DNA of 32,966 nt, from positions 1 to 32,966 of the IMG/VR virus record IMGVR_UViG_3300033995_000182. One strand, written 5' to 3'. The notes beneath the pieces are model-generated. The model was not told the DNA's origin. It saw nothing but the letters and a program-made list of their open reading frames with translations, and did no database searches. This document shows positions 13 through 4,935 of this stretch, piece by piece. Source of the DNA: a virus. Its lineage: Duplodnaviria; Caudoviricetes. Made by a program: the position numbers and the translations under genes. Positions within the stretch are counted from its first letter, which is position 1. The number at the start of each line of letters is the position of its first letter.

Positions 13-88
13 ACCAGGGTAGCTCAGCGGTAGAGCGGGAGGCTCATAACCTCAAGGTCGGTGGTTCAAATCCACCCCTCTGGTACCA
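13..88 (+). tRNA. tRNA-CAT (elongator Met or Ile2)
   Basis: Acceptor ACCAGGG/CTCTGGT-A-CCA, D arm GCTC/GAGC, anticodon loop CT-CAT-AA, T loop TTCAAAT. Lacks initiator hallmarks. Confidence 0.93.
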
Positions 89-93
89 AGTTC

Positions 94-126
94 GGGGGAT
101 TAGCTCATCTGGGAGAGCGCCTGCTT
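94..126 (+). pseudogene. 5' half of a disrupted tRNA-Ala
   Basis: GGGGGATTAGCTCATCTGGGAGAGCGCCTGCTT is a typical tRNA-Ala 5' half (acceptor strand, D arm, 5' anticodon stem). It stops right before the anticodon and runs into TATAAATA. Confidence 0.88.
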
Positions 127-133
127 ATAAATA
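126..133 (+). promoter_or_regulatory. T4-type late promoter for HNH gene 1
   Basis: Exact TATAAATA, followed by AAGGAG SD and ATG at 155. Confidence 0.75.
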
Positions 134-154
134 AACAAAAGGAGATTCATTCTG

Positions 155-712
155 ATGTTTATATGTAAGTTCTGCAAAAAAGAATATAATATGAATGCTG
201 GCGGCATGGTTCATCAAAATCAATGTAAGTTAAATCCTGATAGAGTATCATATCAATTGGGTAGGACTGCTTGGAATAAAGGTAAGACTTCTGATTCGGA
301 TCCAAGAATATCTGCACTTTCTGCTAAAGTTTCTATAGCAATGAGAGGAAAGAAACCAGGAAATTGGAATCCAAACAGAGATAAGTTAAGTCAATATAGA
401 ACAGATTGCACATTTAAATTTTCAGTATATAATTATCCTAAAGAATTTAATCTTTCTTTAATTGAAGAAAGCGGCTGGTATAAAGCCAAAAATCGAGGTG
501 ATAATTTATACGGTATATCTAGAGATCATATGATTTCAGTTAAATATGGTTGGGAAAATAATATAGATCCAAAGATCATCTCTCACCCTGCAAATTGCAA
601 ATTAATGATTCATGGAGATAATGTGAGAAAATATTCAAACAATTCTATTTCTTTAGAAGAACTTCTTTATAAAATAGAACAATGGAATTCTAAATACGGG
701 GACGTAAGCTAA
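155..712 (+). CDS. HNH-type homing endonuclease with N-terminal Zn-finger/NUMOD-like DNA-binding region
   Basis: CKFC..H...C N-terminus, AWNKG NUMOD-like motif, C-terminal RDH...HPANC...H..N HNH-like motif. AT-rich. Stop codon lies inside the downstream tRNA-Ala. Confidence 0.75.
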   Translation: MFICKFCKKEYNMNAGGMVHQNQCKLNPDRVSYQLGRTAWNKGKTSDSDPRISALSAKVSIAMRGKKPGNWNPNRDKLSQYRTDCTFKFSVYNYPKEFNLSLIEESGWYKAKNRGDNLYGISRDHMISVKYGWENNIDPKIISHPANCKLMIHGDNVRKYSNNSISLEELLYKIEQWNSKYGDVS

Positions 713-771
713 CGGGAAACTGGCGCCTTTGCAAGGCGCACTTGAGGGTTCGATTCCCTCCGTCTCCACCA
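698..771 (+). tRNA. tRNA-Ala(TGC), replacement copy
   Basis: Acceptor GGGGACG/CGTCTCC-A-CCA with G3:U70, anticodon stem GCGCC/GGCGC with loop TT-TGC-AA, T arm GAGGG-TTCGATT-CCCTC. D arm is weak. Confidence 0.9.
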
Positions 772-775
772 GTTC

Positions 776-809
776 GAGGTGGTCGGTTCGAGTCCGACAT
801 TCTCCACCA
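776..809 (+). pseudogene. 3' half of the disrupted tRNA-Ala
   Basis: G-AGGTG-GTCGG-TTCGAGT-CCGAC-ATTCTCC-ACCA. ATTCTCC pairs with GGGGGAT at 94-100, including G3:U70. Confidence 0.88.
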
Positions 810-811
810 AA

Positions 812-876
812 ATTCGACGTCGCTTGCGGGAGCCACTGCGCCGGATCATGGCCGGTTCGACACCGGGACGTCGAAT
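812..876 (+). ncRNA. tRNA-like element lacking a normal anticodon arm and CCA
   Basis: 10-bp closing stem ATTCGACGTC/GACGTCGAAT, D-like hairpin GCTT-GCGG-GAGC, T-like arm CCGG-TTCGACA-CCGG. Confidence 0.45.
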
Positions 877-884
877 ACTTAAAT

Positions 885-960
885 GCCTCGGTAGCTCAGT
901 TGGTAGAGCATCGGTTTGAAGAACCGAGTGTCGGCGGTTCGACCCCGTCCCGAGGCACCA
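885..960 (+). tRNA. tRNA-Phe(GAA)
   Basis: Acceptor GCCTCGG/CCGAGGC-A-CCA, anticodon stem TCGGT/ACCGA with loop TT-GAA-GA. Confidence 0.95.
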
Positions 961-975
961 TTTTAAGGGTTATTC

Positions 976-1680
976 ATGAAAGATAAACTGTCTATTGTTA
1001 TTCCTTGTAAAAACGAGGAAAATTATATCTCATGGCTTCTTGAAAATCTTAAAATTCAAGAAGGCATTGAAGATGTTAAGATATATATAGCAGATGCATC
1101 AACAGATTCAACTCGAAGTGTAATTAAGAAAAATAGTAAGGACTTAAATATAAGTATCATTGAAGGTGGTCCAGTATCGACTGCTAAAAATAATGGTGCA
1201 AAACTTGTAACAACGCCTTATATTCTTTTTATTGATTCTGATGTTAGGTTCTTTCAAAAGACAGTTATTAAAGATACTGTAAAACTTTTGGAAGAAAATA
1301 ATCTAGATCTTATCGGTCTAAAGATCAAATGTTATGATGATTCCATAAGAACATCTTTAGGATTTATGTTGTTTAATGTTATCAATAAGATCCTATCTTA
1401 TTGGTGTCCTTTTGCTGTTGGGGCGTATATGCTGACTAGAACAGATAAGTTTAATAAACTAGGCGGGTTTCCTGCTAAATATGCTACATCTGAAGATTTC
1501 TTCCTATCCAAGAAATACAAACCTAACAAGTTTATGATCGCTGATCATTACTTTGGTCAAGATAGTCGTAGATTTAAGAAAATGGGTTATCTAGGTATGA
1601 GTTGGTATTTGATTAAAAACTTCCTAAATAGAAACAACGAAAAACATTGGAAGAATATAGATGGCAAAAAATACTGGTAA
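976..1680 (+). CDS. Family 2 glycosyltransferase
   Basis: LSIVIPCKNEE start, DASTDST, A.NNGA, FIDSD (DxD) and SED motifs. Confidence 0.9.
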   Translation: MKDKLSIVIPCKNEENYISWLLENLKIQEGIEDVKIYIADASTDSTRSVIKKNSKDLNISIIEGGPVSTAKNNGAKLVTTPYILFIDSDVRFFQKTVIKDTVKLLEENNLDLIGLKIKCYDDSIRTSLGFMLFNVINKILSYWCPFAVGAYMLTRTDKFNKLGGFPAKYATSEDFFLSKKYKPNKFMIADHYFGQDSRRFKKMGYLGMSWYLIKNFLNRNNEKHWKNIDGKKYW

Positions 1681-2410
1681 ATATAAATCGGTTTTCATCT
1701 CTGATCTGCATCTTGGTTCTAAGCACTGCAACTCCGAAGAACTCTTGACATTCCTATCTAAAATCCAGACAGATAAATTATATCTGGTGGGAGACATTCT
1801 GGATATGTGGCGTTTAAAAAAGAAGTGGTATTGGCCTAAGGCACACAATCAGATCTTAAGAAAGATTCTCAAGATATCTGAGAAGACTGAAGTCGTATAT
1901 GTTACCGGCAATCATGATGAGATATTTAGAAGTTTTCCAAATATTAGGATCGGACGAATATCAGTTGAACATCGATGCGTATATATAGGATTAGATGGTA
2001 AACGGTATCTTGTGATTCATGGTGACCTATTTGATAACCTAATGAGAACAAAAACAGGTCGCATGATTATGCATCTCGGAGACTTTGCATACGACTCATT
2101 GATTTATATCAATAAAATCATCAATGCAGCCCGTAGAATGTTGAGAATGCAACCTTGGAGTTTGGCTAAATACTTAAAGCGTAGAGCTAAGTTGGCAGCA
2201 AACTATATCGGTGATTTTGAAAAAGAAATGACTCTCTACTGTCAGAAAAAAGGTTATGATGGTATTATATGTGGTCATATCCATCATGCAGAGATTACGT
2301 CGTATGACGGTATTGTCTATATGAATGATGGTGACTGGTGTGAAAGTTGTACTGCACTTGTAGAAACAGTGGACGGCATTTGGAAGATTATTAAAACATC
2401 AGATTTATAA
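1661..2410 (+). CDS. Calcineurin-like metallophosphoesterase, LpxH2/PlcP (UDP-2,3-diacylglucosamine hydrolase-like) family
   Basis: SDLHLG, GDILD, GNHD, HGD, CGHIH and NDGDWCESCTALVE motifs. Confidence 0.88.
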   Translation: MAKNTGKYKSVFISDLHLGSKHCNSEELLTFLSKIQTDKLYLVGDILDMWRLKKKWYWPKAHNQILRKILKISEKTEVVYVTGNHDEIFRSFPNIRIGRISVEHRCVYIGLDGKRYLVIHGDLFDNLMRTKTGRMIMHLGDFAYDSLIYINKIINAARRMLRMQPWSLAKYLKRRAKLAANYIGDFEKEMTLYCQKKGYDGIICGHIHHAEITSYDGIVYMNDGDWCESCTALVETVDGIWKIIKTSDL

Positions 2411-2411
2411 T

Positions 2412-2488
2412 GCCCGTGTAGTCCAATTGGTAGAGGCGCCTGGTTTAGGTCCAGGATGTTGGGGGTTCGAGTCCCTCCACGGGTACCA
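2412..2488 (+). tRNA. tRNA-Leu(TAG) with short variable loop
   Basis: Acceptor GCCCGTG/CACGGGT-A-CCA, anticodon stem CCTGG/CCAGG with loop TT-TAG-GT, variable region only ATGTT. Confidence 0.88.
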
Positions 2489-2496
2489 AGTTTAAT

Positions 2497-2521
2497 GCCC
2501 GATTAGCTCAGCGGTAGAGCA
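2497..2521 (+). pseudogene. 5' fragment of a disrupted tRNA (probably Val)
   Basis: GCCCGAT-TA-GCTC-AGCGGTA-GAGC-A is an acceptor strand plus complete D arm, followed abruptly by AT-rich TTATAAATTTATAAATA. Confidence 0.85.
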
Positions 2522-2530
2522 TTATAAATT

Positions 2531-2538
2531 TATAAATA
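2531..2538 (+). promoter_or_regulatory. T4-type late promoter for HNH gene 2
   Basis: Exact TATAAATA, followed by TAAGGAG SD and ATG at 2566. Confidence 0.75.
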
Positions 2539-2565
2539 ACTTAGTAATTGAGCTAAGGAGTTTAT

Positions 2566-3093
2566 ATGCATAAGTGTGAAACATGTGACAAAGAATTTGA
2601 TAGTCATCGCAAACTAAATGGGCATAAAAGCGTACATCGTGAAGGTGGAAGGTATTCTGTTTCACGTAGAACTAAAGAATCCATATCGTGTCCAAACTGT
2701 AAAACTTTGACATTTAATGCTAAATATTGTAGTAATAAATGTCAACATGAACATGAATGGAAAGAACGGTTTAATCAAATACAATCCGGTGAAGTTCTCG
2801 CTGAACAACATATGAAACGTTATTTGTTTGAAACGCGCGGTGAATGTTGTGCGGAGTGTGGTATAGGTTCTGAATGGAATAATAAACCTCTTACTTTGCA
2901 GATGGATCATATAGATGGAAATAGTGATAATAATTTACTAGACAATTTACAAATTCTGTGTCCTAATTGCCATACACAGACACATACATGGTGTGGTAGA
3001 AATAAGAAGAATACTAAACGCAATAAGTATAATAGAATTTATAGATCACGGGTCCTTAACTCAGTTGGTAGAGTGCATCCTTTACACGGATGA
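2566..3093 (+). CDS. HNH homing endonuclease with C2H2 zinc finger
   Basis: CETC...H...H zinc finger, CPNC/YCSNKC, CAECG...LQMDHIDGNSDNNLLDNLQILCPNCH canonical HNH. Stop TGA lies inside tRNA-Val. Confidence 0.9.
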   Translation: MHKCETCDKEFDSHRKLNGHKSVHREGGRYSVSRRTKESISCPNCKTLTFNAKYCSNKCQHEHEWKERFNQIQSGEVLAEQHMKRYLFETRGECCAECGIGSEWNNKPLTLQMDHIDGNSDNNLLDNLQILCPNCHTQTHTWCGRNKKNTKRNKYNRIYRSRVLNSVGRVHPLHG

Positions 3094-3125
3094 AGTCGGC
3101 GGTTCGAACCCGTCAGGACCTACCA
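3050..3125 (+). tRNA. tRNA-Val(TAC), replacement copy
   Basis: Acceptor GGGTCCT/AGGACCT-A-CCA, anticodon stem CATCC/GGATG with loop TT-TAC-AC, T arm GGCGG-TTCGAAC-CCGTC. Confidence 0.95.
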
Positions 3126-3132
3126 TATTTCC

Positions 3133-3164
3133 GGTCGGCGGTTCAATCCCGTCATCGGGTACCA
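3133..3164 (+). pseudogene. 3' fragment of the disrupted tRNA
   Basis: GGTC-GGCGG-TTCAATC-CCGTC-ATCGGGT-ACCA. ATCGGGT pairs over all 7 bp with GCCCGAT at 2497-2503. Confidence 0.87.
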
Positions 3165-3167
3165 GTT

Positions 3168-3305
3168 TTGAGGTAAGGAAAGCACGTTAGGGGGACGGAT
3201 CGGGCCGCAACCGACTTGCTCTATAGTGACCGACTGATCATCGGTAAAAGGAGAATGGGAGTCGTCGGTGGTTTTTCCGGACGGCGGATACCTCACCTGC
3301 CTCAA
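3168..3305 (+). ncRNA. Candidate structured ncRNA (~138 nt) in the tRNA array
   Basis: Closing stem TTGAGGTA-A-GG/CCTGCCTCAA; internal hairpins TCGG/CCGA, ACCGA/TCGGT, GTCGTC/GACGGC. GC-rich, no credible ORF. Confidence 0.55.
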
Positions 3306-3314
3306 TTTGATTAT

Positions 3315-3391
3315 ACTCTCGTAGCTCAACTGGATAGAGCGCTCGCCTACGAAGCGAAAGGTTACAGGTTCGAGTCCTGTTGAGAGTGCCA
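3315..3391 (+). tRNA. tRNA-Arg(ACG)
   Basis: Acceptor ACTCTCG/TGAGAGT-G-CCA, anticodon loop CT-ACG-AA. Confidence 0.93.
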
Positions 3392-3411
3392 TTTTATGAA
3401 GGAGAATAACT

Positions 3412-3606
3412 ATGCCACTTAAGACTGAAGTTCATATCGGTGAATATGTACGTGATGAAGATACCGGTCCTGGTGAGTCTTCATTGAATGGCAATATCCA
3501 TTTTGATTGCCAAGGTGTAACACCTAATGAAAAACAAAAGATTCGTGATATCTTGGATCGGTTCTATAAAGAAATTCGTACAGAGCTAAAAACTATTGTA
3601 CAATAA
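3412..3606 (+). CDS. Hypothetical protein (64 aa)
   Basis: AAGGAG SD; fills the gap between tRNA-Arg and tRNA-Asn. Confidence 0.7.
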   Translation: MPLKTEVHIGEYVRDEDTGPGESSLNGNIHFDCQGVTPNEKQKIRDILDRFYKEIRTELKTIVQ

Positions 3607-3642
3607 TTGATATATAGTATATACTAAGAATATAAGAGTTAT

Positions 3643-3717
3643 TTCCTCGTAGCTCAGTGGTAGAGCAGACGACTGTTAATCGTCCGGTCATTCGTTCGAA
3701 TCGAATCGAGGAAGCCA
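3643..3717 (+). tRNA. tRNA-Asn(GTT)
   Basis: Acceptor TTCCTCG/CGAGGAA-G-CCA, anticodon stem GACGA/TCGTC with loop CT-GTT-AA. Confidence 0.94.
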
Positions 3718-3719
3718 AT

Positions 3720-3840
3720 AGCGTGCGGTGCACGGGTCCTTAGCAAGACGTTAAACTGCTAGATAATCTCTGGAAGGGGCGCCGATGCATCGGGTCATGT
3801 TCCAAGGCGCAACATGTCGGGACTTATTCTCTCGCACGCT
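3720..3840 (+). ncRNA. Candidate structured ncRNA (~121 nt)
   Basis: Closing stem AGCGTGCG/CGCACGCT; inner GTCC/GGAC, TAGCA/TGCTA, CCGAT/ATCGG and CATGTT/AACATG helices. Confidence 0.6.
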
Positions 3841-3851
3841 GAACCAGAAAT

Positions 3852-4152
3852 ATCTCGTGTGGTATCCTACCATCACACGGTCTTATAAGGGGTAGGATAT
3901 GAATCTAGTTGTCCGTCGGCTAGAGACGAGATTAATGTGGAGACTCTTATGGGTAAAGCATAGGGCGGACCGTTTTCATAGATCTGGGTCGACGGACCTG
4001 GTAAGAAGTGTGACTGAACTATCCTCTGTCGATGGGGATAAGGTAGACTCGGTGGGCGGTCCCCTCCCTAACCAGGAACGAGTCGTGGGTTGAGAATTAC
4101 ATAGTAATTGACTGGACCTTGGAGGTATAACTGAATCCTCCCACTTCGCTTA
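3852..4152 (+). ncRNA. Candidate large ornate ncRNA (~300 nt) with pseudoknots
   Basis: At least nine complementary pairs, including crossing long-range ones (see findings). No ORF with an SD. Confidence 0.6.
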
Positions 4153-4169
4153 TTCAAGAGGATTATATC

Positions 4170-4319
4170 ATGTGGCGCATTTGGGCTAAAGCCTTAGGTG
4201 AGAAGGCAACTCCTTGTGATCGCGAATCTGACAGAGTCGCTTTGATCCGGACGTTGTTCATTGTACAGGCTGTTATAGCAAATGTGTTTCTTGTTGCAAA
4301 TGCAATTCATCATTGGTAG
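4170..4319 (+). CDS. Small membrane protein MWRIWAKALGEK...IHHW (49 aa)
   Basis: GAGGA SD, hydrophobic C-half. Resembles a small protein type I recall from T4-like aquatic phages. Below the ORF-track cutoff. Confidence 0.75.
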   Translation: MWRIWAKALGEKATPCDRESDRVALIRTLFIVQAVIANVFLVANAIHHW

Positions 4320-4330
4320 GAGATTTTATC

Positions 4331-4507
4331 ATGGCTAAAAAGCAACTAATCGCTGGAACAGTCGGCATTGCTGTGGTGGGTATCCTATCATACCTTGGGT
4401 ACCGGATGTTCAAGGAAATTAACGATCTAGACATGATAGATTTCATGGGAGAGAACGTTGATGATGTATACCACTATCGTACACCAAAAAGTGGCCATAG
4501 AGGCTAA
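4331..4507 (+). CDS. Hypothetical protein with N-terminal TM helix
   Basis: AGGAG SD before ATG 4331; LIAGTVGIAVVGILSYLGY helix. Confidence 0.7.
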   Translation: MAKKQLIAGTVGIAVVGILSYLGYRMFKEINDLDMIDFMGENVDDVYHYRTPKSGHRG

Positions 4508-4525
4508 CATATCGAGCGTTGAAAA

Positions 4526-4557
4526 AAAATGCGGCTGGGTGATCCTGGCCGCATTTT
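4526..4557 (+). terminator. Stem-loop/terminator immediately upstream of an early promoter
   Basis: AAAATGCGGC...GCCGCATTTT inverted repeat. Confidence 0.65.
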
Positions 4558-4561
4558 AGTA

Positions 4562-4590
4562 TGTACATATTATCAAAACTGTCGTAGTAT
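4562..4590 (+). promoter_or_regulatory. Early promoter
   Basis: TGTACA-N17-TAGTAT. Confidence 0.75.
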
Positions 4591-4614
4591 GAATAATAAC
4601 GAATGGAGATTGAC

Positions 4615-4935
4615 ATGATCAAGGTTTACCAAATCCAGCTTACCGATGCAGAATTTTGGATGATCAACAGCGGCGAAACCAGTCCGAAGATCAAGGCATA
4701 CTTTGATCGTTCGTTCGACTCGATGTTCAAGGCTGAGAACTTTCAGTACTACACCCGTGTTGCTGACGTTTATGCCAATGATATGGAAGATGCCTTCCGT
4801 CTGATGAACCTCTGGGAACAGCCTGAGTTGGTCGTTAAGCTTGGTCGTTGCTCTTCGATGTCGGTTGGTGATATCGTTGAGATGGATAACGGCGAACGCT
4901 ATCGTTGCGCTTCGTTTGGCTTTGAGGAGATTTGA
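4615..4935 (+). CDS. Hypothetical protein, YodL-like motif
   Basis: GGAG SD; KVYQI start and SMSVGDIV motif. Confidence 0.7.
   Translation: MIKVYQIQLTDAEFWMINSGETSPKIKAYFDRSFDSMFKAENFQYYTRVADVYANDMEDAFRLMNLWEQPELVVKLGRCSSMSVGDIVEMDNGERYRCASFGFEEI

Follow-up and report, generated by a model that had tools for sequence, protein, structure and literature searches.

A compact manA RNA and a new double-pseudoknot RNA in the tRNA array of a T4-like phage

INTRODUCTION

What occupies the non-coding bases at the end of a phage tRNA array? In the IMG/VR virus record IMGVR_UViG_3300033995_000182 (Duplodnaviria; Caudoviricetes), no coding sequence lies between a tRNA-Asn gene that ends at position 3717 and an open reading frame (ORF) of 49 amino acids at position 4170. 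The 32,966 nt of this record are hereafter the window, to which all coordinates refer; features lie on its plus strand unless stated otherwise. From the letters alone, the original prediction took positions 3852-4152 as a candidate for a single ornate, pseudoknotted non-coding RNA ending the tRNA array, and suggested that about 430 nt, with two upstream elements as further domains, could form a large RNA of the GOLLD/ROOL type.

Comparison with homologs gives a different answer. With high confidence, 3852-4152 contains two separate RNAs, each with its own fold: a new RNA of about 120 nt (3855-3972) and a manA RNA (3985-4151). A pseudoknotted non-coding RNA tied to the tRNA array is real, in the form of two independent RNAs and not of a single ornate one. 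The region is thus half known, and half a new RNA family that is absent from Rfam 15 and has a strongly supported fold. Since each RNA is found without the other and the slot that holds them varies among relatives, we view the region as an array of swappable cassettes rather than as a GOLLD/ROOL-like RNA.

Small RNAs of unknown role are described from the tRNA region of phage T4 (RNAC and RNAD; PMC3014915), with Northern validation reported in PMC9697503. The likeness to our case is one of place (the tRNA region of a T4-like phage) and size class only. To this old question of small RNAs in phage tRNA regions, the new family adds a defined member.

RESULTS

Pairings in a single sequence stay at chance level

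The ten helices first proposed for the region are all present and all able to pair. The stretch 3852-4152 contains 13 perfect helices of at least 6 bp, three of at least 7 bp and two of at least 8 bp, counts that were reached by 56, 205 and 67 of 500 shuffles, respectively, and 44% of shuffles have at least one 8-bp complement. As shuffles so often match these counts, the pairings alone do not rise above chance. Single-sequence folding was uninformative as well (z-scores of -0.59 for 3845-4160 and -1.16 for 3715-4160), so that only homologs can tell which helices are real.

A new family with two pseudoknots

The first homolog, which occupies the same slot in contig L113 as a diverged version of 3855-3972, was located through a neighbouring gene, with no RNA pattern involved. 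Further copies in unrelated tRNA arrays came from pattern scans. An initial scan gave 33 loci, of which those lacking the core hairpin were discarded as chance matches. Two further scans left the pairing bases free, the second leaving the last bases free as well. The first returned 57 loci with 44 distinct hits, and the core loop could pair with the 3' tail in all 26 hits that had the hairpin, versus none of the 18 without it. In the second (115 loci, 88 distinct hits), 33 hits had the hairpin and 30 of these kept the pairing, which none of the other 55 did. Contig L051 was found with a covariance model of the core hairpin alone, a model that contains no pseudoknot; its loop GGAUGUC and tail GGCAUCC differ from GUCCGUC and GGCGGAC of the window by three compensated pairs. 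The family now comprises 34 distinct copies in phage contigs, namely 30 members (67 loci), three more variants and the L160 type, which had escaped the search expression. A relaxed viral scan added no new sequence type among the matches listed, L282 repeating L160.

The core opens with hairpin S4 (3904-3924; 3904-3910 pairs with 3918-3924), which had been proposed as TCTAGTT/GGCTAGA and is supported by homologs. Its 7-nt loop, GUCCGUC (3911-3917), follows the consensus G-N-N-N-G-Y-C. In a model-made alignment of the core with 27 distinct rows, two of them chance hits, 99.5% of the cells of this hairpin are paired and five of its seven pairs show double changes. A conserved (R)GAU linker (3929-3932) and an inserted hairpin, S6 (3935-3961), whose sequence and loop vary, together span 3929-3961. 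S6 served as a folding filter and was identified by eye in each homolog; the pair counts leave aside its register, which MAFFT shifts by one base. The 3' tail, A-G-GGCGGAC-C-G (3962-3972), forms a pseudoknot through pairing of 3964-3970 with the loop at 3911-3917. Over the same 27 rows this pairing holds in 98.9% of cells, with 11, 13 and 13 double changes at its three variable pairs (columns 13-15). Directly after the tail helix comes a fixed C-C-A/G end: in the scan that left the tail free, all 30 paired members ended in CCA (20) or CCG (10).

Upstream of the core lies an H-type pseudoknot (3855-3898) made of helices S1 (3855-3863/3872-3880) and S2 (3864-3871/3891-3898). The proposed helix TATCCTACC/GGTAGGATA is retained as one of its arms. 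In an exhaustive search upstream of the core, the pseudoknot of the window beat 150 of 150 shuffles. Of 30 family members, 26 have their best pseudoknot ending at most 16 nt from the core loop, and in 17 of the 30 it is reached by no more than 3 of 60 shuffles. The shape is conserved and the sequence free, some members carrying a hairpin between the two helices. A search for a third helix, between the GAU linker and the 5' domain, gave none.

Two of the pairings first proposed for this half do not belong to the fold. The helix ATCTCGT/ACGAGAT overlaps the conserved helix 3855-3863/3872-3880 and has a significant upstream partner in one of 30 members only (the window type), which makes it at most an alternative fold specific to the window. 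The pairing GTCCGTCG/CGACGGAC gave the core loop the wrong partner, as 3990-3997 is taken up by the first manA hairpin, which covaries, and the partner of the loop is GGCGGAC at 3964-3970.

Searches against Rfam 15 found no family for this RNA. In the window, at E <= 5, the only match was an L31 leader at 3856-3893 (16.7 versus 33.2 bits, E 3.4); eight homolog loci gave nothing on the element at E <= 0.5, and twenty gave only PhrS on L487 at E <= 1 (19.2 versus 37 bits). Blastn of 3640-4200 against cultured phage records returned tRNA-Asn matches only, 3720-4160 had no match at E <= 1 among 50,697 phage records, and the elements of L166, L182, L165, L445 and L472 gave no match or short ones at chance level; we thus found no cultured phage with the new RNA. 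Scanning about 50 of the 64 parts of GTDB with a window-type pattern gave 120 loci, none passing the structure filter; as this pattern misses other loop types, absence from cellular genomes does not follow. A literature search yielded no description of the motif. Six motif strings were absent from three supplement files of a catalogue of 8,495 candidate RNAs from IMG/VR (PMC10690425), which could hold part of the family.

The new RNA keeps company with tRNAs. A tRNA or tmRNA lies on the same strand within 900 nt in 18 of 30 members, versus a single tRNA in 18 chance loci, and in four members a tRNA starts 6-14 nt after the end of the new RNA. It is followed directly by manA in the window, L133 and L051, and with one module between in L113 and L464. 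In other phages it occurs with no manA behind it, and a model search found it in 4 of 99 manA-bearing or clade sources. Two freshwater metatranscriptomes contained 6-7% of words, as contigs carrying no information on ends or strand.

In L160 and L282 the new RNA ends a long non-coding stretch in which no tRNA was called. By eye, the sequence just upstream of it is complementary to one just 3' of it, and could enclose the RNA in a further helix.

The 3' half is a manA RNA

Positions 3985-4151 match the manA model of Rfam (RF01745) from model position 1 to 192, with 58.1 bits against a cut-off of 55.2 (E 1.7e-12). The original prediction had held that a full match to a known Rfam family would remove its novelty, and this is what the 3' 167 nt give; novelty is retained by the 5' ~120 nt, and more strongly than could be seen from one sequence. 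The window copy is a full-length member of the family, found like others in a T4-like phage, and has the family helices; it differs in being compact, lacking one 17-nt hairpin of the model, and in its place in a tRNA array instead of before a metabolic gene. The manA match excludes 3855-3972. A U/A-rich spacer (3973-3984) separates the two RNAs, and similar short spacers precede manA in relatives.

Related loci were fetched with the ORF at 4331 as anchor (73 loci, 46 with a 5'-complete manA). We aligned 29 distinct manA copies, drawn from the clade of the window and from three more distant loci. In this alignment nine helices are paired in 97.1% of cells and 23 of 43 pairs show double changes, a level of covariation reached by 0 of 500 shuffles; slid registers pair in 35-53%. 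The covarying helices include the first hairpin (3985-4000, GACG loop). Four of the helices already listed, GAAGTG/CACTTC, ATCCTC/GGGGAT, GACTCG/CGAGTC and GGAGG/CCTCC, are 94-100% paired in the 29 sequences. A fifth, AATTAC/GTAATT, coincides with a consensus hairpin of the Rfam model; its count among homologs is void because MAFFT misplaced the window row. By contrast, CCTGGT/ACCAGG is paired in 59% of cells versus 60% after shuffling, which is chance level. Two loop-loop pairings that had escaped notice, 4028-4032/4108-4112 and 4057-4060/4071-4074, are kept in 98-99% of cases, with a mismatch in the window at the first pair of the latter. They would correspond to the L3-L8 and L5-L7 contacts of a cryo-EM preprint (10.64898/2026.07.01.735769). 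The 64-codon ORF at 3899-4093, which runs across both RNAs, is not a gene, in agreement with the non-coding call: it has no PHROG match, and of 29 homologs only the window itself keeps the manA part open and in frame.

The manA motif was defined as a candidate cis-regulatory element and riboswitch candidate (PMC2864571), and the 2026 preprint, in which kissing loops L5-L7', L8-L9' and L3-L8' assemble manA RNAs into decamers, octamers and a 60-mer cage, still labels it a putative cis-regulatory element (10.64898/2026.07.01.735769). In a cyanophage manA is described near wcaG and abiF (PMC9964418), and the available part of PMC9602691 does not mention it. Placement in the 5' untranslated region (UTR) of a sugar, nucleotide, chaperone or photosynthesis gene, which is a described tendency and not a definition of the family (PMC2864571), is not seen here, where the next gene is the 49-aa ORF. 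In three relatives (L120, L121, L158) manA begins 11-12 nt after tRNA-Asn with nothing between, and in five (L091, L092, L100, L117, L139) tRNA-Gly follows it directly, unrelated ORFs taking this place elsewhere. A fixed 5'-UTR role does not fit such neighbours, and the flanking tRNAs argue against the cis-regulatory label. Lying between tRNAs and swappable RNA cassettes is what would be expected of a released RNA.

The inner module of manA resembles abiF (RF03085) by eye; this likeness was rejected, as the abiF model matched none of five records at E <= 10. Where manA is missing, as in L080 (3300-3362) and loci related to it, the slot holds a lone hairpin that resembles the inner loop-loop module of manA (GGGAGUGGU...AACCAG) and is not abiF by score.

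A slot of interchangeable RNA modules

In relatives, the slot between tRNA-Asn and manA measures from 11 nt to several hundred, and the small structured modules, or the ORF, that occupy it are combined in many ways. Besides the new RNA, at least eight other modules recur in the slot, and in contigs L091-L159 at least seven small ones have no Rfam match at gathering score in the loci scanned. The motif expressions used to recognize modules were strict and missed some copies, so that these counts are lower bounds.

Two modules precede the new RNA in the window. The first, module X (3736-3763), was recognized by its homologs and by its likeness to the coremin core, the core of exonuclease-resistant RNAs (xrRNAs) described in PMC10520033. 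It is a small pseudoknot whose GUC/GAC stem precedes GUUAAAC, an arrangement shared with the published motif. It differs in its 8-nt loop, CUUAGCAA, which does not follow the loop consensus YGAD/YGNNAD and pairs downstream (with 3757-3762), and in its place in a DNA phage upstream of the new RNA; coremin candidates with loops of up to eight bases are listed in the same source (PMC10520033). Compensated versions of module X occur in L096/L152 and L126, and in relatives they end another module. Twenty-six identical bases (3736-3761) are shared with an RNA-virus-like contig, L086, in which, by eye, a long polymerase-like frame ends a short way before them.

The second, module B (3772-3846), is a diverged copy of an element consisting of GGAAG, a hairpin, CAAGGCRCA, a second hairpin and a GCTGAACCA end. 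Its homologs (L105, L113, L115, L147, L161, L192, L464) occur with and without the new RNA, and 8 of its 19 predicted pairs are compensated among ten sequences; the window scan gave it no Rfam match. The order B, new RNA, manA is repeated in L113 and L464, with other modules inserted between the parts. Module B (GGAAG ... CAAGGCACACU ... GCUGAACC) also has a form that looks circularly permuted, with the GCUGAACC part in front; it follows tRNA-Ala in L027 (minus strand, ~2470-2335) and manA in L076. Circular permutation is common among small ribozymes.

DISCUSSION

A proposed release of two RNAs from one transcript

The best overall explanation, which we put forward tentatively, is that two array RNAs are cut from one transcript and that the new one is a likely tRNA-end mimic. 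Its parts differ in strength. Beyond the two folds, the release of both as discrete stable RNAs is probable, and the role of the new RNA as a tRNA-end mimic or decoy is possible, if on the doubtful side.

Transcription would start near 3597-3625 and run through tRNA-Asn, modules X and B, the new RNA and manA. Host nucleases of tRNA maturation would cut the short U/A-rich spacers, the one at 3973-3984 being, from its composition, a likely processing site. The sequence-free 5' pseudoknot would shield the 5' end of the new RNA while the core captures its own 3' tail, giving resistance to exonucleases at both ends. A short C-C-A/G end would be displayed on a stack of helices, as on a tRNA acceptor arm. 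The RNA would then act in trans, its most probable target, as decoy or as ligand, being a host protein that checks the ends of tRNAs, and manA would probably self-assemble through kissing loops, as other members of its family do in vitro. We favour the trans role because the end and the loop are fixed and the neighbours are not, and because cassette turnover is fast among close relatives; such a role would in turn explain why cassettes are gained, lost and swapped between them.

Several points weigh against this proposal. The decoy step draws on general knowledge and cassette turnover only, and a literature search on CCA-ended decoys in phage anti-defence returned nothing relevant. The end is CCG instead of CCA in a third of the members, the window included. 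In 26 of 26 rows its first C is the complement of the G that invariably opens the loop, so that perhaps only two end bases are free; the last C of the loop is an equally possible partner for this G, and the data do not discriminate. The new RNA has no T-loop, and since the S6 loop varies in length and sequence it has no equivalent of an anticodon. The 5' pseudoknot is indistinguishable from shuffles in 13 of 30 members, in 12 of 30 no tRNA lies in the stored flank (up to 900 nt), and in several an ORF begins ~10-30 nt 3' of the element. Many members are close relatives, so that counts overstate the number of independent events. Finally, the only evidence from RNA libraries is one 155-nt contig of a freshwater metatranscriptome (3795-3949, depth 2.9) that crosses the boundary between module B and the new RNA, and which may be a precursor or DNA.

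Tymovirus-type tRNA-like structures offer an architectural parallel, having a 3'-terminal pseudoknot helix that ends in C-C-A and another pseudoknot upstream. The new RNA shares the terminal pseudoknot helix and the upstream pseudoknot, and differs in having no match to the model (RF00233), no anticodon-like conserved loop, CCG ends in a third of members and DNA phages as carriers.

If the decoy role is true, it would constitute a new, RNA-only route of phage counter-defence; without it, the new RNA is one more well-supported orphan motif. In either case the family offers an unusually clean comparative proof of its fold, with 34 distinct natural variants, and is small enough to be made, probed and solved. 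As a broader and speculative proposal, which we consider unlikely, large phages would maintain an interchangeable library of small knotted RNAs in their tRNA operons, matured like tRNAs; the new RNA would be an anticodon-less mimic of the acceptor end, soaking up host defence enzymes directed against tRNA 3' ends, and manA would be a released, cage-forming RNA and not a riboswitch.

Other explanations

Of the alternatives, the one that survives best, though itself unlikely, makes the new RNA a cis-acting element of processing or stability, with no separate RNA acting in trans: its pseudoknots would stall exonucleases and thereby protect the adjoining tRNA, manA or message. A 5' pseudoknot conserved in shape only is consistent with such a roadblock, as are the varied downstream neighbours (tRNAs, manA, other modules, ORFs), the members with no tRNA nearby and the presence in the same slot of a knot resembling coremin, which forms the core of a known RNA that blocks exonucleases. 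However, a roadblock does not need the invariant C-C-A/G end or the fixed G-N-N-N-G-Y-C loop, and manA and the tRNAs do without the new RNA in most relatives.

It is improbable that the core is a new small self-cleaving ribozyme, theta-like, that excises tRNAs or neighbouring RNAs from the operon. A compact pseudoknotted core of ~65 nt with invariant unpaired or wobble positions would suit a ribozyme, and so would the four members with a tRNA 6-14 nt downstream. Set against the helix order of HDV-like ribozymes, however, the two pseudoknots stand in tandem and are not nested, and no ribozyme model matched. Theta ribozymes provide the precedent of small double-pseudoknot RNAs beside phage tRNA genes (PMC10879173); in that account theta and HDV-like pseudoknots are nested and the theta class lies within 5 nt of a tRNA, at its 3' end, whereas the window copy starts 138 nt after tRNA-Asn and the new RNA has no such fixed position.

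Nor do we give much weight to a structural RNA that self-assembles, the tail of one copy pairing with the loop of its neighbour to build oligomers alone or with manA. Covariation is blind to whether a pairing is intra- or intermolecular, oligomers of EGFOA and manA are reported to be built by 3'-strand exchange and kissing loops (10.64898/2026.07.01.735769), and the new RNA stands directly before manA, or one module before it, in the five contigs named above. But manA is not adjacent in most members, most manA copies have no new RNA, and the sole apparent cross-pairing between the two is not conserved.

A riboswitch-like aptamer controlling whatever lies downstream is very improbable. The preQ1-II aptamer consists of a hairpin, an inserted hairpin and a pseudoknot formed by the 3' tail, a layout that the core resembles, and several marine members lie just 5' of a ribosome-binding site and ORF; manA itself was once proposed as a riboswitch candidate (PMC2864571). 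Yet tRNAs and other non-coding RNAs are among the downstream elements, where no gene family was seen to recur, no riboswitch model matched, and a consensus scan of 3000-4700 gave no terminator-like site.

Least likely of all is the single large RNA of the original prediction (3720-4152, with domains joined by long-range pairs): some 430 contiguous non-coding bases after a tRNA, the repeated order B, new RNA, manA and the RNA-library contig across the B boundary speak for it, but no helix between modules is conserved, in L113 and L464 the parts are set apart by other modules, each part also occurs alone, and there is no GOLLD or ROOL match. GOLLD and ROOL are pseudoknot-rich phage RNAs of unknown function found near tRNA islands (10.1101/2024.12.08.627333), and the likeness ends there, as their models do not match the window and its parts, of 120 and 167 nt, assort independently. 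The check proposed at the outset, cmscan with GOLLD, ROOL, RNase P, tmRNA and intron models, found no match at the element at gathering score or E <= 5; the tmRNA model scored once in the window, partially, at 744-870 (E 0.71), away from the element. The same scan detects GOLLD where it is present, as in the array of a relative (L095, 178 bits). In L095 the GOLLD RNA (454-926) contains a tRNA and lies in the same array as manA.

The phage and its tRNA array

The phage is T4-like, and the window, a fragment of its genome, has PHROG matches for DNA polymerase, UvsX, helicase and Hsp20; the best cultured matches of the polymerase are cyanophages, at ~50% identity. ARAGORN calls seven tRNAs within 13-3717 and no tmRNA. 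The last of these genes, tRNA-Asn(GTT) (3643-3717), is supported by model and ARAGORN, has a CCA end and anchors the cassette slot on its 5' side, in relatives as in the window. Upstream of it, a consensus scan found a promoter-like site, TGTACA-N17-TATACT (3597-3625), which is the likely start of the transcript carrying the downstream RNAs. The scan gave seven such sites versus 3.7 by chance and is weak taken alone; a TGTACA-led motif recurs at eight plus-strand places and one minus-strand place in the window, several of them directly 5' of genes. The small ORF directly 3' of manA (4170-4319, 49 aa) belongs to phrog_1679 (E 1.3e-19).

A tRNA-Val is split over 2497-3163, its first 25 bases (2497-2521) and last ~31 (to 3163) matching the intact tRNA-Val(TAC) of L027. 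In place of the anticodon arm stands an insert with an ORF for an HNH endonuclease (2566-3093) and a second, intact tRNA-Val(TAC) that differs from the split one (3050-3125). The insert has the look of a homing cassette carrying a substitute for the tRNA it disrupts. The same layout is seen at 94-809, with a tRNA-Ala-like 5' half (94-126), an ORF, tRNA-Ala(TGC) (698-771) and a tRNA 3' half (772-809); the ORF (155-712, 185 aa) matches PHROG families of unknown function, none named HNH.

Between the split tRNA-Val and tRNA-Arg, a further structured element of ~140 nt (3168-3305), closed by a terminal helix, has no Rfam match. It occurs only in near-identical phage contigs, the element itself being 93-95% identical there and its flanks unchanged in L036. 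At 812-875 lies an element resembling a tRNA, with a closing stem of 9 bp and a hairpin like a T-arm; ARAGORN does not call it, and its YrlA score is weak.

Lastly, a phage-borne permuted tmRNA of alphaproteobacterial type adjoins manA, or module B and the new RNA, in L002, L161, L162 and L192. The permuted tmRNAs beside these related cassettes hint at the host group of the phages.

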